IMG/VR virus record: IMGVR_UViG_3300038954_000199
Length of the DNA: 64,000 nt
Reading direction: 5' to 3' (one strand)
DNA from: an uncultured virus (IMG/VR IMGVR_UViG_3300038954_000199)
Lineage: Duplodnaviria > Heunggongvirae > Uroviricota > Caudoviricetes
Shown here: piece by piece, positions 1 to 21,263 of the stretch
How positions within the stretch are numbered: position 1 is the first letter of the stretch
Layout: every line of letters starts with the position of its first letter
Made by a program: the position numbers and the translations under genes
Notes under the pieces: model-generated
Database searches by the model: none
Seen by the model: only the letters and a program-made list of their open reading frames with translations
Told to the model about the DNA's origin: nothing

Positions 1-55
1 CTTCGCACGTTGGCCGGGACGTGTTGTATGAATTTTATTTTTCAAGGAGATAAAA

Positions 56-244
56 ATGGACAATAAAACATGTGATTGGGTACATCAAGGTGAAGGTGAA
101 TTTATTACTCAGTGTAGAAATGAACATCAATTTAGCGGCTTATATTCACCTTTTGAGCTGGAGGAGGATGATTTTAAGATATTGAAGTTTGTTTATTGTC
201 CATACTGCGGTAAAAAAATAAACGTCATACAACAGTCGCTATGA
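56..244 (+). CDS. Small Cys-containing protein (C-terminal YCPYCGKKI zinc knuckle), cargo of a gene cassette
   Basis: SD AAGGAG upstream; CxxC motif; stop codon lies inside the attC-like site. Confidence 0.7.
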   Translation: MDNKTCDWVHQGEGEFITQCRNEHQFSGLYSPFELEEDDFKILKFVYCPYCGKKINVIQQSL

Positions 245-314
245 GGTTCCGAGCCTGACGGCTCTACACCCAGACCTGTTGCACAGGCTTCGCATAGCGG
301 CAAACGTTGGTGTC
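226..314 (+). mobile_element. Integron attC-like recombination site
   Basis: Starts with CATACAAC (226-233) and ends with GTTGGTG (306-312); inner inverted repeat CGCTATG/CATAGCG; two internal hairpins; CATACAAC is the exact reverse complement of GTTGTATG at 23-30, upstream of the ORF. Confidence 0.65.
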
Positions 315-527
315 AATAAATTTAAACAATGAATTATAGGCGGCGGAAAGACAAGAATAATAATGACCCGCCCCTGAAGAAAAATATGCGGCGGCTAAAA
401 ACAGAACAATGAATAAGATGAATACACAGAGTATAAAACTTGCCCGTTGAGTAGGCTCGCCGTTCTTGGGTCGCAATGGGTATTTTTTGATGAATAACAC
501 CCCGGCAATCAAGAAAAAGAGGGAACC

Positions 528-1322
528 ATGAACAAAAACGCGTAACAGCAATTTCTGAACGAACTCGATGATAAGCTGTGGAAAGCGGCTGACAGGTTAC
601 GAAACAGCCTCGATGCAGCCAATTACAAACATGTTGTACTGGGCATAATCTTTCTGAAATATGTCTCGGATGCCTTTGAAGAGCGACAAAACGAGCTGCG
701 TAAGCTTTTCACCGAAGAAGGCACCGAGGACAACATCTACTACATGCCTCGGGAAGACTACGGCAGCGATGAAGAGTACGAAGAGGCCATAAACGAAGAG
801 CTGGAACTTTACGAGTATTATCAGGAAAAGAATGTCTTCTGGGTTCCCAAAAATGCCCGGTGGAACTATCTGAAATCCTCGTCCGCATTGCCGATGAATT
901 CTGTCCTGGGGCACGATGAAAAGGGTAACGACATTACGATGCGTTCAATTTCCTGGCTTATCGATAACGCCTTGGAGTCAATCGAGACATACAAAATTGA
1001 CGGCAAACTTGCAAACCCCAAGCTCAAAGGCATTCTCCCGCGAATCAGACGCTACGAAGTGGACAACCGCAACCTTACCGAGTTGATAAACCGGTTTTCC
1101 GATACCAGCTTCAGCAATCCCGAATACAACGGCCACAGGCTGAATCTGCAAAGCAAAGATATTCTGGGTCATGTGTACGAGTATTTCCTCGGGCAATTTG
1201 CGTTGGCCGAAGGAAAGCAGGGTGGCCAGTATTACACGCCCAAAAGCATTGTCACGCTTATTGTTGAAATGCTCTAGCCCTACAAAGGCCGTGTATACGA
1301 CCCTGCAATGGGATCCGGCGGT
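528..1322 (+). pseudogene. hsdM: Type I restriction-modification methyltransferase subunit, 5' fragment
   Basis: Frame reads [49 protein letters not shown]...[54 protein letters not shown]; in-frame stops at 543-545 and 1275-1277; similarity ends just after motif I. Confidence 0.9.
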
Positions 1323-1336
1323 AGTGCCTTCGTCAT

Positions 1337-1645
1337 TCAGTTAATGTGTATTTTTTTAGGTTTTTCTTTTATTTTTTTAAGATCTATTACCAGAACACCA
1401 TTTTTTAGACGGGCTTCTATGTTTTTAACGTCTCCAACTTTGAAAGATCGGTTTATTTCTCCGCTATATATTTCTGAGTATGGTGCATTGTAACCTTTTT
1501 TATCGGCAAATATTGACAACAATCCGTCTTTTAAAGACACGTTAACATCTTCTTTTTCAATTCCTGGCATTTCCATAACTATTTTGTCTTCTGACAATGC
1601 TACGGGGGCAAGGTTTGATTCGTTAAAAAAACTGTTTAAAAACAT
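1337..1645 (-). CDS. Small heat shock protein (Hsp20/alpha-crystallin)
   Basis: EMPGIEKEDVNVSLKDGLLSI...RSF...IEARLKNGVLVIDL...KKIHIN; GGAGG SD. Confidence 0.9.
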   Translation of the reverse strand: MFLNSFFNESNLAPVALSEDKIVMEMPGIEKEDVNVSLKDGLLSIFADKKGYNAPYSEIYSGEINRSFKVGDVKNIEARLKNGVLVIDLKKIKEKPKKIHIN

Positions 1646-1680
1646 TAGTTCCTCCTATGTTAAGTTCTTATCATTAACAG

Positions 1681-1696
1681 TGCAACTATTATGCCA
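1681..1696 (-). promoter_or_regulatory. Putative sigma54 (-24/-12) promoter of hsp20
   Basis: Minus strand TGGCATAATAGTTGCA, GG-N10-GC spacing, ~35 nt upstream of the start codon. Confidence 0.6.
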
Positions 1697-1794
1697 CATG
1701 TTAAAATAGACTTTTTGTTCGTTTTTTCTTGTTTTGTTGACTCTAATTGTTGTATATTAAAACCGTGTAGTATCATGTTTGAACAGAGGTTTAT

Positions 1795-2280
1795 ATGCAG
1801 TTAAATTTTGGATTTTTCGATGAAGAGTATGAACAAAAAAAATATACGGAAATATTACAGGAACATATGGATTCAGTTTTTAATACGGAACATGGTTGGA
1901 AGAAATGTGTACCGGTTGGTAGTGAAGTGTATTATGATTTAGTAAAGGGTGTGTTTACAATTCGGGTGTATTCATCTATAATTGAGGGGAAATCTAGAAA
2001 ACGTGGTAAAGATGCTATAAGAGTTTGTCTTTTGGCAAATGTAGATAACAAAATGAAGGCTATTCGTAAATATCCTCGTGTAAATAGAATAGCTACGTGG
2101 GAATCTAATCTTAAACGAAGAGTAATGGAAGCCTATAATGATTATAAAACAATTCCAACGTGTCCTCGATGTGGAGCACCAATGTCTAAACGTAAAAACA
2201 AAACTACGGGAGAGGAATTTTTAGGTTGTTCTAGATATCCACTGTGTCGTTCAGTAAGGAGTTTAAATGAAACAGTATAA
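1795..2280 (+). CDS. Protein with C-terminal topoisomerase-type C4 zinc ribbon
   Basis: CPRCGAPMSKRKNKTTGEEFLGCSRYPLC. Confidence 0.75.
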   Translation: MQLNFGFFDEEYEQKKYTEILQEHMDSVFNTEHGWKKCVPVGSEVYYDLVKGVFTIRVYSSIIEGKSRKRGKDAIRVCLLANVDNKMKAIRKYPRVNRIATWESNLKRRVMEAYNDYKTIPTCPRCGAPMSKRKNKTTGEEFLGCSRYPLCRSVRSLNETV

Positions 2281-2428
2281 GTGTAAGATAAAAGGCTGGG
2301 TGACATCCGAAGAGTGTTTTCAATGTTTTAAAAAACAGTCCCCCAAAAAATTTGGTTGTAGGCCATGGTGTAAAAGAGAAAATGTTGTTGATACAATAGA
2401 AATGTCAGAGGATGGTTGTGATTCTTAA
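2267..2428 (+). CDS. Small Cys-rich hypothetical protein, 53 aa (not in the ORF track)
   Basis: AAGGAG SD; MKQYKCKIKGWVTSEECFQCFKKQSPKKFGCRPWC...; fills the gap between neighbours. Confidence 0.55.
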   Translation: MKQYKCKIKGWVTSEECFQCFKKQSPKKFGCRPWCKRENVVDTIEMSEDGCDS

Positions 2429-2434
2429 CATAAA

Positions 2435-2641
2435 TTGGATATATTGGTAATGGTTACGTTAGACTTGATTGGTAGAGATCCACTTAAGTTTAAATTTTCG
2501 TATGAAAAAGAGATGGACTTTTACAATATTTGGGATAAACTACATAGCGAGGCATCTTTTGATAAATGCATGAAAGTCATAACGGATTTTGGTGATCATG
2601 TAATTCCTGTAATGCAAATACGGAATGTTTTTCTTTCGTGA
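2435..2641 (+). CDS. Hypothetical protein
   Basis: ORF in an operon-like run; 4-nt overlap with next gene. Confidence 0.5.
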   Translation: MDILVMVTLDLIGRDPLKFKFSYEKEMDFYNIWDKLHSEASFDKCMKVITDFGDHVIPVMQIRNVFLS

Positions 2642-2934
2642 ATCCAATAATAGAATATCGTAAATTATTGTCTATAATTTCGTCTATATCTGGTGTTCCT
2701 GTGTCAGATGCTGATGCGGAGATTGCCCGGTGGGCGACAGAGTCAGAGTACTATGATGAATGGGAAAAACTTGTTCGTAATGGTAAAATTGTAGAATCTG
2801 CAAAATTGTATCTTAAATGTTATGTTGAGGATAATTTATATAACAAAGAGAATGATAATACCAATACAAACCAAAATTCACTGGAATCGTATTTGGAAAG
2901 TGAACCTTCTGGTGGTATTTTTGATTTAATTTAA
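2638..2934 (+). CDS. Hypothetical protein
   Basis: GTGA overlap with previous gene. Confidence 0.55.
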   Translation: MNPIIEYRKLLSIISSISGVPVSDADAEIARWATESEYYDEWEKLVRNGKIVESAKLYLKCYVEDNLYNKENDNTNTNQNSLESYLESEPSGGIFDLI

Positions 2935-2945
2935 AAGGATTTATT

Positions 2946-3107
2946 ATGACCTCTGTAAGTTTGCCTTATCACATGTCGTCGAAATTAACATGTTATCAAC
3001 GAGAAACTTTAAAAAATTGCAAGGTACTAGTTGATGATTTTTCTCAGAGTTTTATTATATATGGGAAAGATATTACTTTAAACGATTCTCTTGACACTAC
3101 TAATTAA
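2946..3107 (+). CDS. Hypothetical protein, 53 aa (not in the ORF track)
   Basis: AAGGA SD; open frame MTSVSLPYHMSSKLTCYQRE... Confidence 0.45.
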   Translation: MTSVSLPYHMSSKLTCYQRETLKNCKVLVDDFSQSFIIYGKDITLNDSLDTTN

Positions 3108-3119
3108 AAAATATATCTT
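3091..3119 (+). promoter_or_regulatory. Putative sigma70 promoter
   Basis: TTGACA-N17-TATCTT ending 8 nt before ATG 3128. Confidence 0.45.
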
Positions 3120-3127
3120 AACTAATT

Positions 3128-4087
3128 ATGATAAATAAAAATCCTATTGGTGGTGTTTCTGTAGGCGAATACGTAGATGGTTGGGTATTACTTCAGTCAT
3201 TAAAAATTGTACAATCTAAGACCTCTAGAAATTATATAAATTGGAGCGGATTAGATATTAATGGTGTTAAGATTTGGGGCACCTACTTTGGTCCCGATAA
3301 TGCACCGCTTCCTAAATTTGAGAAGGGTTCTGTTATATCGGTGTCTGGTCCTATTGGAGAAGGAAAGGCGGGATTAGCTGTTTGGGCACAGTCCATGACT
3401 AAAGTATTGGATGATAAGGATGTGAAAGAGTTTGAGTACGTGTGTTATCCAAGTGTTCCAGACAATGAACTATCTAACTACGTGTTCGAGTTAGAGACTA
3501 TATCAAAATCATTTACAGGACCCATTTCAAAGCTATCCCTTTCATTATTTGACTATTTTAAACCTTATCTTTATACTATTCCCGCTGGAATAGATATTCA
3601 TGAACCGGTTCGTGGCGGTTTGGCGAAACATACGTGGGATGTTGTTAAGATGTGTGAGGCTGCTCAGGAGATTATGGGCTTGGACCGGCAAGTTTTATTG
3701 TTTTCTGCGTTATATCATGATATTGGAAAAACGCAAGAATATACGGAAAAGATAACGTTTAGTAAAATTCGTGGATTGATAAGTCACACATCAATTGCAA
3801 TACAACTTATTACAGATGCATTGATAACAAAGGACATTTGTGTTTCGTCGAATGAATTGTGTCACATACAACACTGTATATTATCTCATCATGGTGAATT
3901 TTCTGAGATAAATCCCTGTACCAAAGAAGCTAATTGTTTACATTACTGTGATAATTTATGTGCTAAAATAGGGCATATCAGTGAATCTATAAGACGTGGA
4001 GAAATAGGATCGGATGGAAGAGGTAAATGGTCCAAAGTTTTAGGAACTGTTCCTTATGTTCCGGAATTAGATGACAGTGCAAAGTAG
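3128..4087 (+). CDS. YhaM/Cbf1-like 3'-5' exonuclease (OB fold plus HD domain)
   Basis: IHEPVRGGLAKHT, ALYHDIGKTQEY, HCILSHHG, EANCLHYCD; N-terminal OB-like region. Confidence 0.8.
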   Translation: MINKNPIGGVSVGEYVDGWVLLQSLKIVQSKTSRNYINWSGLDINGVKIWGTYFGPDNAPLPKFEKGSVISVSGPIGEGKAGLAVWAQSMTKVLDDKDVKEFEYVCYPSVPDNELSNYVFELETISKSFTGPISKLSLSLFDYFKPYLYTIPAGIDIHEPVRGGLAKHTWDVVKMCEAAQEIMGLDRQVLLFSALYHDIGKTQEYTEKITFSKIRGLISHTSIAIQLITDALITKDICVSSNELCHIQHCILSHHGEFSEINPCTKEANCLHYCDNLCAKIGHISESIRRGEIGSDGRGKWSKVLGTVPYVPELDDSAK

Positions 4088-4322
4088 ATATCAAAAAGCA
4101 GTAGTAACCCGTAGTATTAACCGATATATTAAAAAGGGTCTACTTATTCTTAAGATTTCAGTAGACCCTTATCAAGTTATTATTACCCCTAATTCTAAAT
4201 ATCTATTGGTTACTATTGATAATAATACGGAACGTGTAACACCAAAAACCTTTTCCGATTACGTATCAAAGTCTGGCACCTTTGGTTATTTTATAACTTC
4301 ATTTCGAAAGGCTGTGAAATGA
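4071..4322 (+). CDS. Hypothetical protein
   Basis: Overlaps both neighbours. Confidence 0.5.
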   Translation: MTVQSRYQKAVVTRSINRYIKKGLLILKISVDPYQVIITPNSKYLLVTIDNNTERVTPKTFSDYVSKSGTFGYFITSFRKAVK

Positions 4323-5368
4323 CTAGTATTAGTTTTGTTTCGTTAGATTCATTTTCTGGATTTCCTTTCTATAATAATCCTATTGATTTAACTATAGATT
4401 TAATGGGGTCTTATTGTAGGCCAGAATCTATTATAAAATCATCTGTAGGTGATTTTTATGATGACAGTATGAGATTGTTTTTTAAAACAATACTATTATT
4501 AAAAAACAATGTTCCTCATAAAGACTTGCTTTCGTTATGTCCTATAGGTGTTTTAGTTGGTAATCATATAAACGTAAATCCGGATGAGAACTTGGATTCT
4601 TTAGCATGTCATCCGTTAAAAGAAGTTCGTGATGTGGCGTGTACCTTTGGCGGTAGACCAAACAAATATATTAATCGTAGGGTTGAGGATATAGAAAAAA
4701 TTTCACACAGTCTTTGTGCAGGATATACCCCCCAAGAAGTTGGAGACGTTACAAGATGGATTTCAGATAGCGGATTTTTATCTGAGTCTATGATTGCTAA
4801 TATGTTATATCCCTGGGTGACACAGCCTGTTGGTCAACTGCGTATGCTTGTTCCATCTTTGCCAAATTCTACACGTTCTCATATTATAAAAATACATCTT
4901 GATAGAGAGCGTCTTGGTTATATTCCAAATTCTCTTGATACGGGATATGCTTATACATACGATATCATTTCTGATTTTCTTACATATCAACAATTTGGTC
5001 AGAGTAAGATACATTCTCCTATAAATATTATGAGGCAATTTAGAACACCTTTTCTTAATTTTGACTTGCCAGTGTCGTTGTTACAGCTTGGTGATAAAGA
5101 AAAGAAAATGGTAGATGATTGTGTTCAGAGGTCTAAAAAATTGTACATTGAAATGCTTAAGACGGGTCTTCGGTACGAAGCCCAATATGCTATCCTGTGT
5201 GGATTTCGTACAAGATTTTGTATAAATTGTAATTTAGCTGCAATTATAGAATTGGTAGAAGTGTTAAGTGGAAAAGATAATAAAGTTGATAGAATTATTA
5301 ACGCTATAAAAGAAGATGTTTTGAAATCTCAGACTTGGGCAGAAGGATCTGTAGATTTGTTTAAATAA
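4319..5368 (+). CDS. Degenerate ThyX (flavin-dependent thymidylate synthase)-like protein
   Basis: C-terminal half resembles long-form ThyX (YTYDIISDFLTYQQF; EAQYAILCGFRTRFCINCNLAAIIELVEV) but has no RHR motif. Confidence 0.4.
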   Translation: MTSISFVSLDSFSGFPFYNNPIDLTIDLMGSYCRPESIIKSSVGDFYDDSMRLFFKTILLLKNNVPHKDLLSLCPIGVLVGNHINVNPDENLDSLACHPLKEVRDVACTFGGRPNKYINRRVEDIEKISHSLCAGYTPQEVGDVTRWISDSGFLSESMIANMLYPWVTQPVGQLRMLVPSLPNSTRSHIIKIHLDRERLGYIPNSLDTGYAYTYDIISDFLTYQQFGQSKIHSPINIMRQFRTPFLNFDLPVSLLQLGDKEKKMVDDCVQRSKKLYIEMLKTGLRYEAQYAILCGFRTRFCINCNLAAIIELVEVLSGKDNKVDRIINAIKEDVLKSQTWAEGSVDLFK

Positions 5369-5721: not shown

Positions 5722-6675
5722 ATGAATATTATATTTGTCGGTGGTATTTATTATTGTGAATTTTCTTTGTTTAAAGAATCACAAAACAATCCGAAAATTA
5801 ATGTTGTCTTTTGTACATCTGGTGAGTCTATGCCGGATGCAGTTGATATTGTAAAACCGAAGATAGTAACATCAAGAGAAGACATAAACAAAGTTAAAGA
5901 TGAGTTTAATCCGGATTTAACTTTATTCCGTACGTGGAATAATACAGAGATCTGGGTTAATGATGATGAACTCTTATGGTCTCAAGAAATAAATCCTACT
6001 CTTGAAGACGGTTCTAAAGAAGATCGGCCACTACCAAAACGAGGTATATTGACATATCAAAATAAAGTTTATGCAAACAATCAGGGAAAGAGGTGGCTTC
6101 CGTATTGTGTTTCTAAATATTGGGGATATAAAAAGGCATTAAAAGATATTCCGGTATTGTTAGCTACGAATTTACCGGACGTTACAAGAGGTGGATTAAA
6201 CAAACGTTGGTCCTTAGATGTATTGTTTAAACCGTTGGTTGATTGGGACAAATCTAAATTGGTTGCTTATCAAGGTTTTTACGGGGGATTAGATACTATT
6301 CCGTATATTAAACCTATTCTTAAACCAACTTATAGATCTATACATGCAATTGACTACATAAACAGAGCAAAAATTTACGTGTCTCCGTCTACGATTTTGT
6401 ATGATGAAGGATCTATATCTCACAAGACGATAGAGGCAATGGCTTGTGGAGTATGTACAATTACAAATAACTATGTGGGGGTAGAAGAAATAGTTGGTAA
6501 AGATCATGATACGATTTTGTATTCAAATAGTCCTGAAGAGACTTTAGACAAGGTAAAATATTACTTAACTCATGATTCTGAACGAGAGGCGTTAGCTAAA
6601 AGGGCATATGAATATGTTCATAAAAAATATAATTGGGAAGACCATTTTAATAGATTAATTAAGGAGATACAGTGA
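5722..6675 (+). CDS. GT-B glycosyltransferase (CgeB/Glyco_trans_1_2-like C-terminus)
   Basis: KTIEAMACG...DKVKYYLTHDSEREALAKRAYEYVHKKYNW. Confidence 0.8.
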   Translation: MNIIFVGGIYYCEFSLFKESQNNPKINVVFCTSGESMPDAVDIVKPKIVTSREDINKVKDEFNPDLTLFRTWNNTEIWVNDDELLWSQEINPTLEDGSKEDRPLPKRGILTYQNKVYANNQGKRWLPYCVSKYWGYKKALKDIPVLLATNLPDVTRGGLNKRWSLDVLFKPLVDWDKSKLVAYQGFYGGLDTIPYIKPILKPTYRSIHAIDYINRAKIYVSPSTILYDEGSISHKTIEAMACGVCTITNNYVGVEEIVGKDHDTILYSNSPEETLDKVKYYLTHDSEREALAKRAYEYVHKKYNWEDHFNRLIKEIQ

Positions 6676-7547
6676 AAATCTCTGTTGTTATCCCTACTTA
6701 TAATAGGGCAGAAATACTTTATAGAACATTATATTCTTTGTGTAGGCAAAAAGACAACAACTACGAATTATTAGTGTCTGTTGATGATGATCAGGATAAA
6801 TATGAAGAGAGTGTATCGGTTTGTAAATCCTTTATAAATGAGGGGGCATCAGTAAGATATTTTTATACAGGACAATATAAACGTGGTGATGGTTGGAGTC
6901 TGGAATCCTACCCTTATAATGTAGGAATACGTCATGCTGTTGGTGAGATTATTATTTTAAATAGCGGTGATGTAATAAGTATTTCTAATACGATTGACCA
7001 ACACCGACAGAGGCACAAAGTAGATTCAGTTTATGTTTCGACTGTTCATGCTCTTATTCAAGAAGTTCAAAATAAAATTGATGATTATGATTGGAAATCA
7101 AATCCAAGTTCTTTATTGTTTAAAGGATCTTGTTATAAAATGTTTACGGGTATAGGTAAGAGTTATACTGCGGCGTATGAGTACGAAGATGCCGGAACAC
7201 CCTACCATTTTCAGATGTCTATTCGTAAAGACTATCTACATAAAATACGTGGATTTGACGAAGACTTTTATGGTATTATGCCTTGTGGCGATGATGATCT
7301 GGCTCACCGAATTAAAAAACTTGGACTTAATTTTGTATACACTCCGGAAATATTAGCGGTTCATCAGTTTCATAAGTGTCCAGAATTAATAACAAATAAA
7401 CAGAGTCGTTCAAATAAATTAGCAGAAAGTGGTCATTCTTTATATAAAGAACGAATGTCAAAGAGTATTATAAGAAATGCAAACCATGAGTGGGGACAAT
7501 ATCCAAGAGATATGATTAACTTACCCGATATGTCAGGAGTTAAATAG
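6672..7547 (+). CDS. GT-A family 2 glycosyltransferase
   Basis: ISVVIPTYNRAEIL; GFDEDFYG...DDDLAHR; HQFH. Confidence 0.9.
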   Translation: MKISVVIPTYNRAEILYRTLYSLCRQKDNNYELLVSVDDDQDKYEESVSVCKSFINEGASVRYFYTGQYKRGDGWSLESYPYNVGIRHAVGEIIILNSGDVISISNTIDQHRQRHKVDSVYVSTVHALIQEVQNKIDDYDWKSNPSSLLFKGSCYKMFTGIGKSYTAAYEYEDAGTPYHFQMSIRKDYLHKIRGFDEDFYGIMPCGDDDLAHRIKKLGLNFVYTPEILAVHQFHKCPELITNKQSRSNKLAESGHSLYKERMSKSIIRNANHEWGQYPRDMINLPDMSGVK

Positions 7548-8185
7548 TGACGTTTAATGATTTATGTGATTTGGTAGTAGAAGTTAATAGTAAAAATACT
7601 TGGAGCTTTCTTACTTCTTTATCTAAGAAACACAACAAAAAACTGTATCCTAATTTGTCTGAGGAGGAATATAATAAATATTGGAACGGTCCGTTACAAT
7701 GTGAAGCGGCTGCTCGTTCATTAGAGAACCGGTTGGAATCATTAAAAGTTCCGTATTGCCCTTTATTTATATATACTAAATTTTTGACGAAACAGGATCC
7801 GTTACAGTTTGCTGGTCTTAATCGATCTTTATTAAATTACGTAGTAGACCATTATGTAAAGGATTTCCCGATTCCTACTTATGGGGAACTTTTACCAGCG
7901 ACTCATGCTTTGGTTGAGGTTTATATTGAAAAAATACAAAAGTATATTGTAGCAGACCCCTATGCTGGAATTGTTTATAAGGATACTAAAGAAAATCTTT
8001 TGAAAGGTGATCAAGATAATAAGAGTACTGATTTTTATAATCACTGGTTAAATACAATTTCTTATTTAAAAAATAGTATACATATTGATAACGCTACATG
8101 GGTGTACGCAACGCCCCAATTTTGGAAAGGTATATATAGAATAACTACACCAAACCCTATTAATGTAAAACTAAATTCGGATTGA
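7547..8185 (+). CDS. Hypothetical protein in the glycosylation cluster
   Basis: Translationally coupled ORF. Confidence 0.6.
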   Translation: MTFNDLCDLVVEVNSKNTWSFLTSLSKKHNKKLYPNLSEEEYNKYWNGPLQCEAAARSLENRLESLKVPYCPLFIYTKFLTKQDPLQFAGLNRSLLNYVVDHYVKDFPIPTYGELLPATHALVEVYIEKIQKYIVADPYAGIVYKDTKENLLKGDQDNKSTDFYNHWLNTISYLKNSIHIDNATWVYATPQFWKGIYRITTPNPINVKLNSD

Positions 8186-8209
8186 AGATTGAAGATTGAA
8201 GAGTAACTA

Positions 8210-10045
8210 ATGTGTGGTATAGCTGGAGGATTTAATAATATTGTAGTATCTAAGATGTTGGAGACATTAAGTCATCGGGGGTCTGATTCTGTAAATATTA
8301 AAGAGTGCGATGGTATTTTTGTAGGACATACTAGATTAGATATTATTGGTGACCAAGGTGATTGTCAACCTATTGTGGTAGATAATGTAACGGTAACATT
8401 TAACGGTGAAATATATAATTACTTGGATTTGAGAACGGATCTTATTCGTAGAGGGTACAGATTTAAAACAAGTAGTGATTCAGAGGTTATCGCTACGGCT
8501 TATAAATATTATGGTTCAGTATTTGTAGAAAAGCTTGATGGTATTTTTGCATTTGCTTTATATGACTCTGCCGAAAAGAAATTATTTTTGTGTAGGGATC
8601 GTGTCGGTGTTAAACCGTTGTATTATACAAATAATAACGGTTTTTATTTTATGTCTGAAATAAAAGCGTACAGCAATTTATTTTCCTGTTCGGTTAATCA
8701 AGATGCGTTATGTGAATATATTACTTTTCAATATTGTTTAAAGGACACTTTATTTGATGGTGTATATAAGGTTAATCCTGGAGAGATGTTGGAGTTTTCT
8801 AAAGACGGTGAGTTATGTAAAACTATTCCATATTGGGATATTTCTGAAAGTATTCTTAAACGTGATTTTGATAAATATTACACCAGTAAATATTATGAGG
8901 ACCATTTGTTATATACCATTCATAAAGCAGTTCGTAATCAAATACCGACTGTTCCCTTTGGGGTATATGTAAGTGGAGGGTTAGATTCCGGCGCTATTGC
9001 TTCTTTGATTTCTGAGTATACTAATGAATTCAAATTATTTACTGGTAGATATGATTTAGCGCATTGCGACGAATCTGGTTATGCTGAAGAGGTGGCGAAA
9101 TTTGTTGATAAACCTTTATGTACTGTAGATATATCTGAAAAAGACGTGGTAGATAATTTAAGTGATGCTATATACCATTTGGATGAACCTGTTGCCGGTC
9201 CGGGTTTGATTGGTCAATATATTTTAGCTAAGAGGGTTAAACAGGAATACCCTGATCTTAAAGTTGTGTTTGGTGGACAAGGTGGGGATGAGTTATTTGG
9301 TGGATATGCCCGATACATTGTTGCCTACCTTGAATGTTGTATTTACGGTTCTATTTATCCTAAAGATCGGGATTATGTTATAAAGTTAAACAGTTTAGCA
9401 CCTATAATGCCGGTTTTGCAGGGATATGAACCTATGATGATCTCGTTTTTTTCCAACAATATGTTTTATGATAAATGGCTTAGATATTTTAGTTTAGTTG
9501 CTCGGTCCGATAACACAGAACTTGATATTGACTTTTATAATTCTGTCTATATTAAACAACTTGATAGGATAAAGGAAGAATTTTTTGATGTGATGAATAA
9601 TAAAGGTTCGGTTTCATATTTTACAAAAATGAGTTATTTTGACTTTAAAAAATCTTTGCCTGCATTATTACAAGTAGATGACCGTGTAAATGGTGCTTTT
9701 TCTATGGAAGGACGATTTCCAATATTAGATGAAAATGTTATTGATTTTGCATTTTCAATACCACCAGAATATAAATTTTCAGGAGGGTATTCCAAAGGAT
9801 TGTTTAGAAAGTCTTTGGCAGGTACGCTTCCCGAATCTGTTTTAACTCGTAGAGATAAGATGGGATTTCCAGTACCGATGAAAGAGTGGTATAATAAAAA
9901 AGGAATTTTTTATAATTTTGTTAATGACACTTTGAAATCCAACGGTTCTACGTTTTCTAATGTTTTTAAGGCACCAAAAGAATTTAACCGATCTACTTGG
10001 GGACACTTAAGTTTATCGTTGTGGTCTAATCTATTTAATGTTTGA
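8210..10045 (+). CDS. asnB: Asparagine-synthetase-family glutamine amidotransferase
   Basis: N-terminal MCGIAG, FNGEIYN, SGGLDSG, GQGGDELFGGY, RRDKMGFPVP. Confidence 0.95.
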   Translation: MCGIAGGFNNIVVSKMLETLSHRGSDSVNIKECDGIFVGHTRLDIIGDQGDCQPIVVDNVTVTFNGEIYNYLDLRTDLIRRGYRFKTSSDSEVIATAYKYYGSVFVEKLDGIFAFALYDSAEKKLFLCRDRVGVKPLYYTNNNGFYFMSEIKAYSNLFSCSVNQDALCEYITFQYCLKDTLFDGVYKVNPGEMLEFSKDGELCKTIPYWDISESILKRDFDKYYTSKYYEDHLLYTIHKAVRNQIPTVPFGVYVSGGLDSGAIASLISEYTNEFKLFTGRYDLAHCDESGYAEEVAKFVDKPLCTVDISEKDVVDNLSDAIYHLDEPVAGPGLIGQYILAKRVKQEYPDLKVVFGGQGGDELFGGYARYIVAYLECCIYGSIYPKDRDYVIKLNSLAPIMPVLQGYEPMMISFFSNNMFYDKWLRYFSLVARSDNTELDIDFYNSVYIKQLDRIKEEFFDVMNNKGSVSYFTKMSYFDFKKSLPALLQVDDRVNGAFSMEGRFPILDENVIDFAFSIPPEYKFSGGYSKGLFRKSLAGTLPESVLTRRDKMGFPVPMKEWYNKKGIFYNFVNDTLKSNGSTFSNVFKAPKEFNRSTWGHLSLSLWSNLFNV

Positions 10046-10051
10046 GGAGTC

Positions 10052-10960
10052 ATGGTATCACTTTGTACCTTGCTTGCACGTAAATGGGATATATCTGATA
10101 TTGCTTATCGATTATCTACACAGACACACAAAGATTTTGAATGGGTAATAATTGATTTTAATTATGAAGAGAATAAAAATATTTTTTCAGAGATAACGTT
10201 AAAACATAATATAAATCTTGTTCACCGTCCTAATATTCGACAAGTATTCCCCTACATTAGAGACATTGCCCGTAATCGTAATGAGGCTCTTCTTCATTCT
10301 AACGGAAAGTATATAATATTTTTGGATGATTACACCATAATTGATAACGATTTTATAGAAAATCATTTAGAAATAGATGGGATTTCGTGTGGAAAGATGT
10401 ATACTATGAAGGACGTGGTGGAGGTAGATAAAACACAAACAGTATCAGATGTATTAAAACTTTCACGCCATGTAAAGGATTCTCGTTTAGCTTTTACGAA
10501 AGATGTTGTATCATTGGTCAAGGGTCCGGAATGGACATACACTGGTAATTTAGGATTCCCAAAAGAAATTGCAAGGCACCTTAATGGTTTTGATCCTAGA
10601 CTATCTGGTCAAGGAGAAGATTCTGATTTTGGATTACGTGCATATAATTTGGGATATAAAGTATTTTATAATCCTACAGCATATAGTATTAATTTGTGTA
10701 CAGATCCTTATCCGTGCAAAACTTTTTTTGACCATGAACATCCGATTAACTTTTTACTTGAGAACAACTCTAAAATAATATCCGATCCGACAATAATATC
10801 TGATTGGGGAGAGGTGATTAAAAAATATGGTGTTAAGTGTGTTGTATGCAAAAAATGTGGAGCAGAATATATACTTAACCCCTCTGATTTCATTTATAGT
10901 AAAATTAATAATAAAGAGTTTATAACTAAAAAAACACTTTTTAATTGGAGGTTATCGTGA
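10052..10960 (+). CDS. GT-A family 2 glycosyltransferase
   Basis: RNRNEAL, IFLDD, NGFDPRLSGQGEDSDFGLR. Confidence 0.85.
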   Translation: MVSLCTLLARKWDISDIAYRLSTQTHKDFEWVIIDFNYEENKNIFSEITLKHNINLVHRPNIRQVFPYIRDIARNRNEALLHSNGKYIIFLDDYTIIDNDFIENHLEIDGISCGKMYTMKDVVEVDKTQTVSDVLKLSRHVKDSRLAFTKDVVSLVKGPEWTYTGNLGFPKEIARHLNGFDPRLSGQGEDSDFGLRAYNLGYKVFYNPTAYSINLCTDPYPCKTFFDHEHPINFLLENNSKIISDPTIISDWGEVIKKYGVKCVVCKKCGAEYILNPSDFIYSKINNKEFITKKTLFNWRLS

Positions 10961-11883
10961 AAATTCTTGTTACCGGTGGAGCAGGGTTTATTGGTAGTAA
11001 TTTAGTAGATCGGATGATTAAAGACGGACATTATGTATATGTTGTTGATAACCTATCAACGGGATCTTTAAGAAATCTTTCTATTGAAGCTAATTTTATA
11101 GAGGGTAGTATTTCTAATTATCAGCTTCTTAAATATATATTTGAATCGTTTACTCCTGAAGTTGTTATTCATGCTGCGGCAAGTTATAAAGATCCCGATG
11201 ATTGGAATGAAGACATAATTACAAACTGTATTGGTGGAGCTACTATTGCGCGGTTATCAAAAGAGTATAATGTAAAACGATTAATTTATTTTCAGACCTC
11301 GTGTGCTTATGGACACGAACCAATGGAACAACCCATAACACCAAAGTGCCCTTTTATTCCGGATACAAGTAGTTATGCTATTACAAAGGCTACTGCGGAG
11401 TTTTTTATTAAAATCAGTGGTGTTGAATATATTTCTTTTAGATTGGCAAACTGCTACGGACCAAGAACTAAAACCGGACCCGTTCCTAATTTCTATAAGA
11501 AATTGGTAGCAGGTGAACAATGTACTGTAATGAATACTCGTAGAGATTACATATATATTGACGATTTATGTAATGTGGTATTACGGGCGGTATATGGTGA
11601 AGGAACTCCAGGAGCATATCATATTTCTACGGGTAGTGACTATGCTATTGAAGAGTTATATAAAACCATGGCAGACATTTTAAATATTAATAAAGAACCC
11701 AGTCGAAAAGAAAAGGGTGCAGACGATACGTATACATTGTTAATATCTCCGGAAAAGACAAAGAAAGATTTCCCTGGGTGGTCTGCGGAAACTACACTTA
11801 GAGAGGGGTTAGAGAAGACCATTAATTATTATAAAAACAATCCTCCTTCCGATGTGTATACTCATTTAAGAATGACAAAGTAA
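10957..11883 (+). CDS. NAD-dependent nucleotide-sugar epimerase/dehydratase (WbmG/WbmH-like SDR)
   Basis: GGAGFIGS, HAAASYKDPDDW, YAITK, FRLANCYGPR; GTG start after GGAGG. Confidence 0.9.
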   Translation: MKILVTGGAGFIGSNLVDRMIKDGHYVYVVDNLSTGSLRNLSIEANFIEGSISNYQLLKYIFESFTPEVVIHAAASYKDPDDWNEDIITNCIGGATIARLSKEYNVKRLIYFQTSCAYGHEPMEQPITPKCPFIPDTSSYAITKATAEFFIKISGVEYISFRLANCYGPRTKTGPVPNFYKKLVAGEQCTVMNTRRDYIYIDDLCNVVLRAVYGEGTPGAYHISTGSDYAIEELYKTMADILNINKEPSRKEKGADDTYTLLISPEKTKKDFPGWSAETTLREGLEKTINYYKNNPPSDVYTHLRMTK

Positions 11884-12515
11884 TGTGGAATTGGCCCAAA
11901 AACCGCAACAAATTTTTATTAGAACTTGAAAGTCTTCCATATAACTATTCAAAAATAGTTGAAAAGGAAGACGAAAATTGGGAATTGTTCAGTAAATATC
12001 CGGAACTGGTTATTCCAGAATTTAAAACTCATCAAGATTTATTTAACTATGCTTTTGGTGTTGGTCATTGTGGGATAGGAGTTTTAGATATTGGTACTGG
12101 AGGAGGCATTTTTTTAGAACGGTATTTGACCGACAATTTCATGCCTCCACGAGTAGGATTAGATGTAATCGATATTAGTACTCCTGATGGTTGGTCTTCA
12201 TATAAAGAAAAGGCGTCGGACTTTGATAAACTAGGTTTTGAATTTGATCATATTCAATGTATTGAAACAATAGAGCACCTTGATGAAGATATAGGTTTGA
12301 AGGTGGCTGAAAAAATGATTAACTCCTGTAATTTGTCTTGTTTAATAACATGTATGGGATTGCCACATCATCTTGGAAGTCTTAATATTACGGCCGTTGA
12401 AAAAAACCCCGCTCTAATATATAAAGGACAACCGAACATTGAGAAATTAATGTCTTTAGGTTACACTGTTAGGCTGTCTAATAATTACCAAGTTGTAGCA
12501 TGGAAGTGTCACTAG
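11883..12515 (+). CDS. Class I SAM-dependent methyltransferase
   Basis: VLDIGTGGG; FDHIQCIETIEHL. Confidence 0.75.
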   Translation: MWNWPKNRNKFLLELESLPYNYSKIVEKEDENWELFSKYPELVIPEFKTHQDLFNYAFGVGHCGIGVLDIGTGGGIFLERYLTDNFMPPRVGLDVIDISTPDGWSSYKEKASDFDKLGFEFDHIQCIETIEHLDEDIGLKVAEKMINSCNLSCLITCMGLPHHLGSLNITAVEKNPALIYKGQPNIEKLMSLGYTVRLSNNYQVVAWKCH

Positions 12516-12540
12516 GAGAACCACCTGAAAGGAAGGGTTT

Positions 12541-13488
12541 ATGAAGTTATCTATTTGTACAGTAACTGCAAGGAAAGGATTTGTTGATGTTTTAGCACAT
12601 ATGCTTGCTAATCAAACATATAAGGATATTGAGTGGGTATTGGTAGACTTTGATTATGAAGCACGGTCTTTGGCTGTTAAACAGTTATCTGAACATCTTA
12701 ATATTAAGATAACGCATTCGCCTAATGTTCGAGATGACAAATTATTTTTTAGAGATATTACTCGGAATAGAAATAAGGCACTGCAATTATCTACTGGTGA
12801 TTCGGTTATCTTTTTGGATGACTATGCAATGATTCCACCGGAATTCTGTGAAGAACATCTTCCTATTTTAAATGAGCGTTGTATAAGTGCTGGGAATATG
12901 TGGAGATTAGAAAAAGACCCCGGAGAGAATCAAATAAGTTGTAATGAAGAGGATGCTACTTTTTATTATAAAAATCCAAAAATTATACTGGACAAATTTA
13001 ATTCTTCTATTGGTAGAGATTATAGAAATAGAGACAAAGTGTATCAGGCAACTGGAATAACTTATACTGGTAATTTAGGAATTCCAAGAGAAATATTTGA
13101 AGTACTAAATGGTTTTGATCCTCGGTTGGAATCTGGACTTGAGGATTGTGATTTTGGTATGAGAGCTACTATTGCTGGATTTAAGACGATGTTTAATCCT
13201 ACTGCATATACCATTAATCTAGATACTGGTAAGTTTCCCTATGTAATACAATATGATCATAGTCATGACGTAGAGCCGTTTATTTGCAACCCTAATAATA
13301 ATTTTGCTGGAGATGATAAACTTAAAGAAAATGGTTTTATGAAGGTTTCATTTATGGAAGGTTATAGAGTGGCAACTTGTAAAATTTGTGGTGCTAAAGG
13401 TGTAATTGATCCAAATGAACTTATGAATCTTAAAGCAAGTAAGAAAGATTTTTGTACACCTATAGGATTACCAGGAGGGTTAAAATGA
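12541..13488 (+). CDS. GT-A family 2 glycosyltransferase, paralog of 10052-10960
   Basis: RDITRNRNKAL, IFLDDY, TYTGNLG, NGFDPRL..EDCDFG. Confidence 0.85.
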   Translation: MKLSICTVTARKGFVDVLAHMLANQTYKDIEWVLVDFDYEARSLAVKQLSEHLNIKITHSPNVRDDKLFFRDITRNRNKALQLSTGDSVIFLDDYAMIPPEFCEEHLPILNERCISAGNMWRLEKDPGENQISCNEEDATFYYKNPKIILDKFNSSIGRDYRNRDKVYQATGITYTGNLGIPREIFEVLNGFDPRLESGLEDCDFGMRATIAGFKTMFNPTAYTINLDTGKFPYVIQYDHSHDVEPFICNPNNNFAGDDKLKENGFMKVSFMEGYRVATCKICGAKGVIDPNELMNLKASKKDFCTPIGLPGGLK

Positions 13489-14297
13489 AGCCCTTTATTA
13501 AATGGGCAGGAGGTAAGAGACAGTCATTGTCCGAGATTAACAAATTAATACCAAAATATAATACGTATATCGAGCCCTTTTTGGGGGGAGGTTCTGTTTT
13601 CTTTTCTATATATCACCCAAAAAATAGTCATTATCTATTTGATATTAATAATGATTTAATACGAACTTATAGATGTATTAGGGATAATGTAGAAGACTTA
13701 ACTTTTGAGCTCACAAAACTGTCGGACTCTTACTATAGTTCAGTAGATAGCAAAGAATATTATTATTTGATTAGAGAACGATATAATAACAAACCTCTTG
13801 ACTCGGTTATGAAATCTGCTTATTTTATATTTCTTAATAAGACGTGTTTTAATGGATTATATAGAGTAAATAAAAAAGGTTCTTTTAATGTACCATTTGG
13901 ATATTATAAAAAACCTTTGATTTATAATTCAAACTTAATTAGTATTTCTTCTGTTTTAAAAAATGCGTTTATAGATATTTTAGATTTTAGGGATTTACAT
14001 AATTATATACGAAAAAACACTTTTATTTATTTCGATCCTCCTTATATGCCTGTAAACAAAACATCCTTCACATCATATACTAACACTTCTTTTTCTGAAA
14101 AAGACCAAACAGACTTGGCGAATATTATAAAGTCTGTTTCAAGTAAAGCTAAAATAATGATGTCTAATTCAAGTTCTCCGTTAGTTTATGAATTATATAA
14201 AGATTTTAATATCTGTGAAATCTACTCTCGGCGTTCAATAAATTCTGATTCTAGTGGTAGATCAAAAATAAAAGAACTTTTAATTACTAATTATTAA
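13485..14297 (+). CDS. dam: Dam-family (D12 class) DNA adenine methyltransferase
   Basis: KPFIKWAGGK, EPFLGGGSV, CFNGLYRVN, YFDPPY, ELLITNY. Confidence 0.92.
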   Translation: MKPFIKWAGGKRQSLSEINKLIPKYNTYIEPFLGGGSVFFSIYHPKNSHYLFDINNDLIRTYRCIRDNVEDLTFELTKLSDSYYSSVDSKEYYYLIRERYNNKPLDSVMKSAYFIFLNKTCFNGLYRVNKKGSFNVPFGYYKKPLIYNSNLISISSVLKNAFIDILDFRDLHNYIRKNTFIYFDPPYMPVNKTSFTSYTNTSFSEKDQTDLANIIKSVSSKAKIMMSNSSSPLVYELYKDFNICEIYSRRSINSDSSGRSKIKELLITNY

Positions 14298-14340
14298 AAC
14301 TTATAAAATGTCAAATTATAACCAATTATAAGGAGGCTAT

Positions 14341-15075
14341 GTGAAAGAGATTGATATAACTACAAGAGAAGATGCAATTAGACAAGCTGCGAATTATTGT
14401 AAGTGTACAAAAAGACCGCAAGTTATTCCAAGTACATCTAATTTATGTTTTGGAATCGCGGGGCTTGTGTTTATTGATGCGGGTATGTCGGAACCAAAAG
14501 AAAGCGTATATTTTCCTATAAAAGATGTTGAGATGACTTCATTACCGATAACAGATAGATTAGATTTTGTAGGATTTTTTGATATGTATGGAAGAGATTC
14601 TTATTTAGATATAAACCGAAACTTTTCTATGTCTTATCTTTCTAATGTAGAAAAGGAGGTTTGTGCCTGTGTTCCGTTTAGTTTAATGGATAATTCTTCT
14701 ACAGTTAATTCGTTAGTTGAACATTGTCGAGAGAACAATAATAAATACTATAAAAGTATTATACATGATATATCTAAAATTGCTTGGCCTAATTCAGATC
14801 CTATTGAACCAGCATCGGAATCTATTGAAGAAAAAAAGAATAAAGTTCCTCTTTTAGATGATTACACGGTGTACGAAGTAAGAGACCGTATAGAATTTGT
14901 TACCTTATTTGACAAATTGAGTTTTATTTGTCCTGAAGATAAAGATAATCCTAATACTATTAAATTGGTTTCTTTCGAGAAGAGACAATTACTTCATATT
15001 CCGATATCGTTATATAGGAAATCCGTAACAGTTCGTACATTGATAAATGCTGCCGATAAAAAATGGACTCTTTAA
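14341..15075 (+). CDS. Hypothetical protein
   Basis: AGGAGG SD, GTG start. Confidence 0.65.
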   Translation: MKEIDITTREDAIRQAANYCKCTKRPQVIPSTSNLCFGIAGLVFIDAGMSEPKESVYFPIKDVEMTSLPITDRLDFVGFFDMYGRDSYLDINRNFSMSYLSNVEKEVCACVPFSLMDNSSTVNSLVEHCRENNNKYYKSIIHDISKIAWPNSDPIEPASESIEEKKNKVPLLDDYTVYEVRDRIEFVTLFDKLSFICPEDKDNPNTIKLVSFEKRQLLHIPISLYRKSVTVRTLINAADKKWTL

Positions 15076-15100
15076 ACATAATATTAACTGAGGAGTTAGA

Positions 15101-15586
15101 ATGTTGACAAAAAAAGTATTAGAACAAAAAATAAATAGTCAGTTAGAAAAAGCAGTAGACCAACCGGAAAAAGAAATTTTTTTATACGGTTTATCATTTC
15201 GAGATTGGCGATTATCCTACGGCATTTTTAGAAAAGGTTTATTTTTTCTATCTATCTATCCGGCTTTTTGTCTGTCTAATCACTTCACGGTTCACTATAG
15301 AAAATTGTCGGATATGGTTTCAGACGTGTTTTTCTTTGTGGATTTTGAATCAGAAGACAGCCGAATTGGGTTACCGGATTTAATAGCTACTGTTTTTTCT
15401 ATTACCAGAAACAAGGAAACTATAGAATTATTTCAAGACCAAAAAGACTTGTTAGACCTAGGTCTTAAACATTATCATCTTGATAATTATTATCAAGATG
15501 TTATTAAGTCATTATGCTTAGAATATTATGAAAAGGGAACTATTTCAGGTAAAAAAATAGACTTAACTTTTTTGGAGATGTTATGA
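15101..15586 (+). CDS. Hypothetical protein
   Basis: GAGGAG SD. Confidence 0.65.
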   Translation: MLTKKVLEQKINSQLEKAVDQPEKEIFLYGLSFRDWRLSYGIFRKGLFFLSIYPAFCLSNHFTVHYRKLSDMVSDVFFFVDFESEDSRIGLPDLIATVFSITRNKETIELFQDQKDLLDLGLKHYHLDNYYQDVIKSLCLEYYEKGTISGKKIDLTFLEML

Positions 15587-16284
15587 TTACTCCAATGGAT
15601 CCAGAATATTATGATAAAGCCTATTTCGATACCGGATCAAAAGAGATGGTTGATAAGACGACAGGAAAGAAAAAAGTATGGGGGTATAAAGGAACCGATT
15701 GGGCAGGAAACTATTTTATTATTAAGGGTTTATTGAAAATCTTTAATGGGGAAATTGGGTCGGTTCTTGATATGGGTTGTGGTCAAGGTTCATTTACCGA
15801 CTACGCTATCCGAATGGGTCTGTTTTCAAAAGGATATGACTTTTCAAAATATGCTATTGAAACTGCACATCATAATGCTAAAGGACACATATTTCAAGCT
15901 GATGTCTGTGACGGAATATCAGAAGACGATAATTCGTTTGATTTAATCTTTTGTAGTGATATGGTTGAGCATATCAAAAAGTCAAAAGAGCCTATTGTAA
16001 TTAAAGAGTTTTATAGAGTTACAAAAAAATGGGTGTTTTTACAGTTTCCAGTAGCGACTAATGAAAGAGAAGTATTTGATGCAGAAACTGACGGGGAGGA
16101 TAATCCTTGCTACTCTCATTATATGATTGCTGGACATCTTAATATGGAACAAAGACCATGGTGGGATAAGTTATTTAAACGTCATGGGTTCAAGATTAGA
16201 GAAGACTTGGTTGTTGACTTTCGTGTTAATACTCCAAAGGAAGTTATCGCAAATTGGCAAAATATTGTTATTTTGGAGAAGTAG
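15583..16284 (+). CDS. Class I SAM-dependent methyltransferase
   Basis: VLDMGCGQG; FDLIFCSDMVEHI. Confidence 0.85.
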   Translation: MITPMDPEYYDKAYFDTGSKEMVDKTTGKKKVWGYKGTDWAGNYFIIKGLLKIFNGEIGSVLDMGCGQGSFTDYAIRMGLFSKGYDFSKYAIETAHHNAKGHIFQADVCDGISEDDNSFDLIFCSDMVEHIKKSKEPIVIKEFYRVTKKWVFLQFPVATNEREVFDAETDGEDNPCYSHYMIAGHLNMEQRPWWDKLFKRHGFKIREDLVVDFRVNTPKEVIANWQNIVILEK

Positions 16285-19890: not shown

Positions 19891-20853
19891 CTAGCTTAGG
19901 CTGAGAATGGAATCTAAAGCTGTCTGCTTGAGTTTAGCCGCAGTCGTGAACATAATTGAGGACATTCTACGATTTGCGTCTTTTGATACGCTTCTGCTCT
20001 CGTGGTCGGCATATTGACAGACAGCATTATACAGGCTCCAAGCAGTCCTTTGCATTCCTTCAAGATTGTTTTTGGGATCGTTTTCGAAGTCATTAATAAC
20101 ACAATCAATAGCTTTCTGTTGTTGACCGGTCTCACCTTTTTCCTTATCCACTTTGAAAACTTCATTACACACTTCGTCTACCATCTTTTTGGTGGTAGAA
20201 ATCTGGTGTAACCGTTCAACAATTGCTTCGAAATCAGAATAGTATCTGTGAGCCAGTCCCAACGCATCCTGGGCATATTGTATTTTGGAGGTGACGTTTC
20301 CAATATGCCGGATGGAAACACTTTCAGTTTGCCTGCCCAGGCTTGCTATAAGTGTGTTGTTACAAACAACACGGATAGGAGTAAAGTACATTCTAAGAGC
20401 GGTTGAGCCATCATGGGAATTTACGAGCGTAAGATATTGTTCAATCTTGTCATCTTTCCCAGCGATAATCTCTTTGGGAAGTTTAGCTACCAAAAAAATA
20501 CGTTTTCCCTCGAAGATGGATCCGGCGGTTTCGTAGTATGCTCCGCCCGTACCAATTACTGAGTCAAAGAAGGCAAAGGCATCTGTGTTCTGTACAGGTT
20601 CGTAGTTTTTTGACATGACACTAAGAACTTTTGAATTGTCATTACGGACAATTGCCCGGTGGTTTGGTACATCCACACCATCGACGGTGATAAGTTCTCG
20701 ATTAGACACTTCCCAATCTAAGTGTGCTGCTGTAATAGCTTCTTCGGCGGTAGCCGGTTTATCCAGTTTTTGTCCAAGACCATGCCATGGTTTTTTACCA
20801 GCATAGAAAAATTCTACTTCGCCGTTCATGTTTTGAGTTAGTTCGTGAGACAT
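19891..20853 (-). CDS. DUF932 / TIGR03299 phage-plasmid-like protein
   Basis: PWHGLG, AAHLDWEV, YEPVQN.DAFAFFD, NSHDGS, TPIRVVCNNTL, TAWSLYNAV; AAGGAG SD. Confidence 0.9.
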   Translation of the reverse strand: MSHELTQNMNGEVEFFYAGKKPWHGLGQKLDKPATAEEAITAAHLDWEVSNRELITVDGVDVPNHRAIVRNDNSKVLSVMSKNYEPVQNTDAFAFFDSVIGTGGAYYETAGSIFEGKRIFLVAKLPKEIIAGKDDKIEQYLTLVNSHDGSTALRMYFTPIRVVCNNTLIASLGRQTESVSIRHIGNVTSKIQYAQDALGLAHRYYSDFEAIVERLHQISTTKKMVDEVCNEVFKVDKEKGETGQQQKAIDCVINDFENDPKNNLEGMQRTAWSLYNAVCQYADHESRSVSKDANRRMSSIMFTTAAKLKQTALDSILSLS

Positions 20854-20867
20854 TGTTTCTCCTTTAA

Positions 20868-21053
20868 TTATGATGTTTTCCACACAGCGCCGCATTCTTG
20901 GCACTGTGCACCGACTACGCCGTAATCGTCTCTGATTACGACGTTCCTGCCGCGAGATCCCATCACGACAGAATCACCCCCGATGTCCTCGGGGATCGTG
21001 GTTGTCGTTGCGGGCATCCCGCAACGGTCGCAGTCGGGATACGTTCTTTCCAT
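20868..21053 (-). CDS. Small zinc-ribbon protein
   Basis: CDRC...CQEC; AAGGAG SD; GC-richer than flanks. Confidence 0.65.
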   Translation of the reverse strand: MERTYPDCDRCGMPATTTTIPEDIGGDSVVMGSRGRNVVIRDDYGVVGAQCQECGAVWKTS

Positions 21054-21137
21054 GATATTCTCCTTTGTTTTGCCCCCTGCCTGGGACCGGGGACGGTTTG
21101 TATGTGGCCGGTTATAGTTATCCGTCAACATACCAAT

Positions 21138-21166
21138 AATATAATATACACACCTATAAAGTGCAA
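21138..21166 (-). promoter_or_regulatory. Sigma70-type (early) promoter
   Basis: Minus strand TTGCAC-N17-TATATT with A/T-rich upstream region. Confidence 0.65.
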
Positions 21167-21263
21167 GCACTTTTTTTACTATTTTTAATTATTAATTTTA
21201 ACAGTATGTGCATTAAAACTAATGTAAAAAATAACATAAAAAACTGACTTGTTTAGTGTTTTT

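Follow-up and report, generated by a model that had tools for sequence, protein, structure and literature searches.

A complete mobile gene cassette with integron-style junctions lies at positions 24-306 (283 nt), at the left edge of the 64,000-nucleotide stretch of uncultured virus DNA analysed here (the window; IMG/VR record IMGVR_UViG_3300038954_000199), and the DNA downstream of it has been exchanged exactly at the G^TT crossover of its recombination site. An earlier reading made from the letters alone (the sequence-only reading) had proposed such a cassette, and direct reading located every motif that it listed; the cassette start complements its own left box, and neighbouring DNA changes at G^TT. 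The same reading had expected a bottom-strand fold with extrahelical bases, which was not borne out, as the stem is free of bulges and pairs in another register. The explanation that we favour, at a probability of roughly 0.6, is a non-canonical integron-like mobile cassette, carried by a large tailed phage in its variable early region and served in trans by an Xer-like recombinase.

Cassettes without an integrase have already been published from phages (PMC9892861; this and the other papers cited here were available to us in part). The term CALIN denotes two or more attC sites with no integrase, and single sites are a known class (PMC9024848, in the part available); the present locus offers one complete site and the possible tail of another. 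What it adds is natural evidence of where the crossover falls, a host defence unit that was probably captured and has since decayed, and a tie to a published negative result.

Cassette anatomy and the exchange at G^TT

Features of the cassette and the adjoining DNA, in window coordinates
Feature	Position	Strand	Description
Possible tail of an earlier site	1..22	+	3' end of an upstream family site, either degenerate or carrying a 2-base duplication; 5' arm would lie beyond the window
Left junction, G^TTGTATGA	23..31	+	cassette starts at 24; complementary to own left box over 9 exact bases, 19/25 in total
Ribosome site and ORF	44..244	+	AAGGAG at 44-49; 62-aa ORF at 56-244, stopping inside the site
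attC-like hairpin site	227..312	-	fold; family alignment and pair counts; register test; divergence of a second DNA after 308
Site boxes	227-233; 306-312		left box ATACAAC; right box GTTGGTG; crossover G306^T307
Site stem	235-245; 291-301		11 bp, two mismatches in the window copy
Inner hairpins of the site	251-264; 275-287
Leader of a second, host-derived unit	307..527	+	starts at the crossover; a low-depth contig begins at 314
hsdM fragment, type I restriction-modification	528..1322	+	first 265 of about 580 codons
HSP20 gene	1337..1645	-	first phage-side gene; Pfam PF00011, E 1e-11

The first bases of the cassette (GTTGTATG, 23-30) recur as their exact reverse complement (CATACAAC) at 226-233, and the complementarity runs further than the sequence-only reading had stated, forming inverted arms at 22-42 and 214-234 (21 nt at 90%) that are the longest among 110 inverted pairs in 1-1500. 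Exact complementarity of the cassette start to its own left box spans 9 bases, versus 4 for the downstream box; by composition, the chance expectation of a 9-base exact match to either of the two GTT in 1-170 is 0.0009. Complementarity of the start to the cassette's own R'', as in a circular intermediate, is a defining feature of integron cassettes, as are an open reading frame (ORF) that leads into an imperfect palindrome bearing inverse-core and core boxes, and the exchange of neighbours at G^TT; all three are present here. The palindrome includes CGCTATG (237-243) and CATAGCG (293-299), and CTTCGCA occurs at both 1-7 and 288-294.

The bottom strand of 226-313 is predicted to fold into an R-box helix, an asymmetric spacer, the 11-bp stem and two terminal hairpins (-17.1 kcal/mol, z -2.18, a value equalled by 6 of 200 shuffles). 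The top strand folds similarly (z -2.06), and folding taken alone is weak evidence for the site. A model of the circle junction gives a more stable fold than the linear site does (-22.5 vs -17.1 kcal/mol), as expected under the cassette model.

The 62-aa cargo protein has four invariant cysteines in a zinc-ribbon-like arrangement, with weak Pfam zinc-ribbon and PHROG matches that fall below cut-offs (best PHROG matches E 0.002-0.05, one of them Lar-like). Its nearest Atlas cluster (0.91) is mostly viral among the 8 members with taxa, and the third-position GC (GC3) of the ORF is 0.31, within the range of four phage genes (0.21-0.34), against 0.60 for hsdM. The suggestion that the cargo is a small zinc-binding gene of phage type stood up; most likely it encodes a zinc-binding early accessory protein, and an anti-defence role would be a guess. 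A scan of positions 23-56 detected no sigma-70-like promoter. In 50,697 phage records, neither the DNA nor the protein of the cassette had a match, and a viral contig collection gave 0 DNA-pattern matches to the site and no locus for the cassette protein.

A single sequencing run holds this DNA, and five of its contigs were aligned to 1-4500; the run is probably the window's own source, and therefore provides a second assembly rather than independent data. A 216-nt contig covers 1-214 at a depth (40.4) that is the sum of two branches (17.3 + 23.6). The first branch, a 39,877-nt contig (39.9 kb, depth 17.3), covers 185-4500 with zero differences and joins cassette and phage in one unbranched contig of even depth. 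The second, a 1,127-nt contig (depth 23.6), matches 185-308, with 10 differences in 124 aligned bases and the left box itself altered, and then continues into unrelated DNA. This break, at GTT 306-308, falls at the place predicted by a G^TT crossover, and the unrelated DNA beyond 308 completes a GTTRRRY-like box. Positions 1-22 are shared with this second DNA of the sample. That the shared DNA agrees fully over 1-214, yet differs at 10 positions farther along, suggests that homologous exchange acted as well. A fourth contig (depth 4.5) begins at 314 and resembles the leader and start of hsdM, with a sense codon at the position of the first hsdM stop, and a fifth overlaps the aligned stretch by no more than 35 bases, within hsdM. 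On JGI contigs of 1,626 and 19,475 nt, two 101-aa proteins correspond to the cassette protein reading through the site into the second DNA, and a 62-aa member on a 118,393-nt contig, probably the window's own record, is identical to the window's protein.

Positions 1-22 end in GGAC, like other family sites, and resemble the tail that precedes the first cassette of metagenome locus L022. Two bases separate this stretch from GTT, and its CTTCG-to-GTT distance of 22 exceeds that of family sites (18-19) by 3-4 bases; on these letters it is only compatible with having been the end of a preceding family site. A custom site finder, in two versions, located one complete site in the 64 kb (227-312) and none in four related phage records, where the looser version, which recovers the same window site, gave 1 weak match in 672,600 bases. 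A CTTCG...GTT look-alike at 1328-1346 was dismissed, having the wrong spacing and overlapping the end of the HSP20 gene.

The site family and its stem register

A search with the 3' arm of the site recovered one genome locus and seven metagenome loci, in which further family sites occur, often back to back. Two cassettes are each common to a pair of loci (L018 and L021; L019 and L022) with different DNA on both sides, and in both pairs the neighbours change within a few bases of G^TT. With the best upstream GTT picked within 2.5 kb of each site, complementarity to the site's own left box extends over 9-10 bases in 10 of 13 sites, and that of the downstream box over 4-6 bases in all 13; in L019 (twice), L022 and L032 the complementing GTT is the preceding site's own right box.

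The hairpin is conserved with covariation. Across seven aligned bottom strands (an alignment without the long sites L017 and L020 and two rows with wrong coordinates), 94.5% of cells pair and 12 of 26 pairs show two-sided changes (3 of 11 in the main stem), a level that none of 500 shuffles reaches; as five of the seven share the search 21-mer and the structure is the window's fold, a conserved shape is supported more than measured. The custom covariance model built from the family includes the window, whose score of 96.9 bits arises by construction and is not evidence; its independent matches are L017 and L020, both of which contain the search 21-mer, together with a weak match in L066. It matched none of 30 relatives of genome G001, a result that may reflect the narrowness of the model.

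The canonical attC register consists of a 5-nt spacer, an 8-nt L'' with base 4 unpaired, and a 5-6-nt spacer. Two sites of the Tetrasphaera phage TJE1 that are active with IntI1 served as controls for this register, and both pair at 7/7 in it. The stem of the window site pairs at 7/7 when the 3' arm is shifted by three bases (hereafter offset-3), with no bulged base, and at 1/7 or 3/7 in the canonical register; five family sites reach at most 2/7 in the latter. In canonical attC sites, moreover, two or three bases of the R''-L'' arm are extrahelical, and the first of them sets the strand (PMC2727003, in the portion available). The R''-L'' arm of the window site has no extrahelical base and its L''/L' register departs from the canonical one, so the site at 227-312 falls outside the textbook definition of attC; in three smaller sites of L021 and L022, it is the opposite arm that contains an additional base. 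For both reasons, the IntI excision assay put forward by the sequence-only reading would probably fail without refuting the cassette. A search of Rfam returned chance matches only, nothing reaching gathering level, and the DUF1874 motif, an attC-like candidate in the available part of PMC5737381, does not match the site.

A published experiment bears on this geometry. Six phage sites were tested with IntI1 by Qi et al. (2023; PMC9892861, part available), of which five recombined and one, P12002L_attC1, did not. This site pairs at 7/7 at offset 3 and at 1/7 in the canonical register, which on a single data point ties its failure to the offset-3 geometry; P12002L_attC2, from the same source, fits neither register and was nonetheless recombined.

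Four of the seven metagenome loci (L018, L019, L021 and L024; 16 proteins scanned) have phage-type genes outside their cassettes, for example a DnaD-like loader with DnaB. Locus L022 carries the methylase cassette of L019 and no flank, and L020 looks cellular. As the phage-type loci are 1.5-3.4 kb long and paired by adjacent identifiers, they represent about three independent contexts, and they could be prophages. In L019, L024 and L020, the first cassette is preceded by a site that is not a hairpin. A conserved motif beginning GGAGTGGCG, which forms no hairpin, lies directly before the first cassette in L018 (oriented 168-190) and L021 (858-880) and about 25 bases before it in L019 (2139-2158), and is a candidate attI-like primary site in phage-type DNA.

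Cargo ORFs of the family often traverse the whole site, so that the hairpin is translated as a C-terminal tail (L018, L019, L021, L022 and L024; proteins P0001, P0123 and P0134); in the window, one base creates a stop inside the stem. Among the back-translated tails of eight further homologues, one (P0134) can encode both site arms and two more could encode part of a 5' arm, correctly placed, which is weak evidence. Sixteen loci related to an ORF at 1795 are distant (29-41%) and yielded no site at E < 0.5.

A candidate recombinase, the decayed hsdM and the phage setting

Genome G001 encodes three identical 281-aa recombinases that match the IntI model at 2-179 and 241-315 only, leaving model region 180-240 unmatched; no match in this genome reaches the IntI cut-off. 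IntI reportedly requires its extra domain, going by the title of a 2001 paper by Messier and Roy. The G001 enzyme passes the XerA-like model NF040815 (229 vs a cut-off of 220), and all three copies precede same-strand methylase or restriction-modification genes and offset-3 sites. From this proximity, in one genome, we infer that an Xer-like recombinase of the G001 type acts on the family sites. No relative of the enzyme is encoded in the window; a Pfam scan of 51 window ORFs detected no recombinase, and PF00589 and PF07508 had no match in any of four partial relatives of the phage. An intI gene, which the sequence-only reading had suggested looking for, was not found in the 64-kb window or these relatives. 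Of the phage-borne cassette array that it had offered as one option, one complete site is in view in 64 kb. A literature search, thin on subscription journals, found no description of offset-3 sites or their recombinase. At L066 8422-14004, a copy of the Xer-like recombinase and an offset-3 site stand beside genes for an Erm(F)-like methylase, a Sul-like dihydropteroate synthase and an Lnu(D)-like enzyme, all of them among insertion sequences.

The second unit behind the crossover is a decayed piece of a host-type defence gene; a start similar to its leader (307-527) follows a family site in L017. The hsdM fragment is interrupted by stops at 543-545 (codon 6) and 1275-1277 (codon 250), and is identical to an intact 580-aa protein (P0003) at 248 of 265 residues (94%). 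The 90% cluster of P0003 includes a Marispirochaeta aestuarii protein, which gives a hint only of a donor like that species. Sequencing error was rejected as the source of the stops, given the 17.3-deep contig without a difference. Recoding of TAA/TAG was set aside, as one stop corresponds to Glu and the other to Gln in intact relatives, and is also disfavoured by phage ORFs that read normally under table 11. GC content drops from 0.48 to 0.33 across 1322, and the fragment is probably the remnant of a captured defence cassette.

From about 1337 onward the window is DNA of a large tailed phage (GC 0.35) with terminase-like and tail-like ORFs and an HK97-fold capsid gene at 44361; division of CheckV figures implies a genome of about 185-195 kb. 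Four IMG/VR relatives have capsids 60-93% identical, and one of them (G003), classed as a provirus, is colinear from 3128 onward. As these four partial relatives have no site or recombinase match, the cassette is not core to the phage group on these fragments.

Several further features of the phage DNA were noted. The stretch 5722-16284 encodes four glycosyltransferases, an asparagine-synthase-like amidotransferase, an epimerase, methyltransferases and a Dam methylase, a cluster possibly concerned with capsid or DNA modification. A reverse-strand DUF932/TIGR03299 gene (19891-21250), of higher GC and lower skew and located elsewhere in G003, breaks the plus-strand run after the terminase-like gene. 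The structural region holds a 1055-aa mosaic ORF (49133-52300) in which an Acb1-like 2H phosphoesterase domain scores below cut-off (E 1e-5), and an ORF at 53821-54200 opens with long serine runs and interspersed cysteines. In another locus (L033, 14595-17947), ORFs resemble what we take to be the reverse transcriptase and Avd of a diversity-generating retroelement, split by other ORFs.

In the mechanism that we propose, the bottom strand of 227-312 would fold into a hairpin that serves as a single-stranded recombination substrate, and a tyrosine recombinase would cut at G^TT, excising the 283-nt unit as a circle or inserting another circle there. The enzyme would most likely be a short Xer-like recombinase without the IntI insert, supplied by the host or by another, possibly co-infecting, mobile element. 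Through recombination of this kind, a type I restriction-modification cassette from the host may have landed directly after the small phage-type gene. As it would have brought the phage no benefit, or even harm, most of it would have been lost to a deletion, which cut it off at 1322 and ended 14 bases short of the HSP20 stop, and the remnant would have acquired its two stops.

Competing explanations and known systems

The sequence-only reading had left the choice between phage cargo and flanking host DNA. Carriage by the phage is the better supported of the two, and we hold it likely. It is less probable that positions 1-1322 belong to a bacterial cassette array, with a prophage inserted into hsdM at about 1322. 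Such a flank would account for the host-like composition of hsdM and its 94% identity to intact bacterial proteins, and restriction-modification cassettes are typical of the family's bacterial arrays; the even depth across the junction would suit a lysogen equally well, and G003 is labelled a provirus. However, no integrase lies near 1322, where the next gene is HSP20, 14 bases off, and none of the four partial relatives matches PF00589 or PF07508. The G003 stretch upstream of the shared genes (80-132 kb) was itself read as phage-type, and the run's contigs have no joint or loose end at 1322 such as would be expected from phage induction or from an intact allele in the host. Decay of hsdM beside long structural phage ORFs that stay open, and the phage-like GC3 of the cassette gene, also argue against a host flank.

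Two further explanations concern the site itself. An ordinary IntI-type cassette (a SALIN or small CALIN) moved by a host integron integrase, its odd stem being tolerated drift, is improbable. It shares the RYYYAAC and GTTRRRY-like boxes and the G^TT crossover of integrons, and draws some credit from the tolerance of IntI1, which recombined P12002L_attC2, and from the insertion of cassettes by integrases at genomic attG sites (10.1101/2022.09.11.507474, part available); yet the offset-3 register persists across the family with two-sided changes, the canonical register is as poor in five family sites as here while the TJE1 controls fit it fully, G001 has no match over the IntI cut-off, and in the part of PMC9892861 available the offset-3 P12002L_attC1 is the only one of six sites that IntI1 did not recombine. 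An assembly chimera, or a chance palindrome such as a terminator at a contig end, is very improbable: the region does lie at the window edge beside a branch caused by a repeat, and the fold z-score is only -2.2, but the separate assembly of the same run is unbranched over 185-4500, the site has homologues in arrays elsewhere, and no terminator-like site was found in 1-1800.

The favoured reading, a non-canonical phage cassette, describes a locus that works like an integron cassette yet falls outside canonical attC. With class 1 aadA7 and the Vibrio VCR (PMC2727003, as far as available) it shares a promoterless ORF with an imperfect palindrome, R boxes, the G^TT crossover, an unpaired central spacer, a variable terminal structure and complementarity restored in the circle. 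Unlike canonical attC sites as described there, the window site has no extrahelical R''-L'' base and its 3' spacer exceeds the 5' spacer by 3 bases. In further contrast to canonical cassettes, family ORFs enter or cross the site and the linked recombinase is without the IntI insert; the NF040815 model that this enzyme passes is named 'site-specific tyrosine recombinase/integron integrase', and the enzyme is not encoded in the window. SALINs and attG insertions are likewise isolated cassettes far from an integrase, inserted in trans, and provide a precedent for action in trans here; according to the available part of 10.1101/2022.09.11.507474 they involve IntI enzymes and bacterial chromosomes, whereas the present case has another site type and phage DNA. 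Also close are the phage-borne CALINs of Qi et al. (2023), which are likewise attC-type cassettes without an integrase in phages, with methylase and small-gene cargo. In the part of that paper available, all sites are filed as integron attC, and no evidence of crossover exchange between natural DNAs is given; the present locus has such evidence, and its geometry is distinct from the TJE1 type.

A bolder reading, which we suggest only tentatively, has phages and hosts drawing on a common pool of cassettes moved by a non-IntI recombinase, with two-way traffic that includes host defence cassettes. If that were correct, small accessory genes of phages would be packaged as cassettes, their ORFs often running into or through the site, and the locus would be a snapshot in which a phage cassette is common, without a base changed, to two co-occurring DNAs and a host restriction cassette reached the phage by mis-delivery before it was inactivated. 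New cassettes would then derive in part from phage genes, which bears on how cassettes arise; their origin is listed as an open question (PMC8618304, in the part available). Given another site shape, another recombinase in one genome and a published site refractory to IntI1, standard attC detectors may miss a parallel gene-shuffling system of cells and phages, a case that this locus, being small and without the enzyme, supports more than makes. The locus also offers a short, testable substrate with natural evidence of the cut position. Among published phage sites, attC1 of Polaribacter phage P12002L has the same 7/7 offset-3 stem. That phage also contains a second offset-3 candidate at 32220-32284, and the published attC2 sequence occurs in it twice, at 29239 and 37265.
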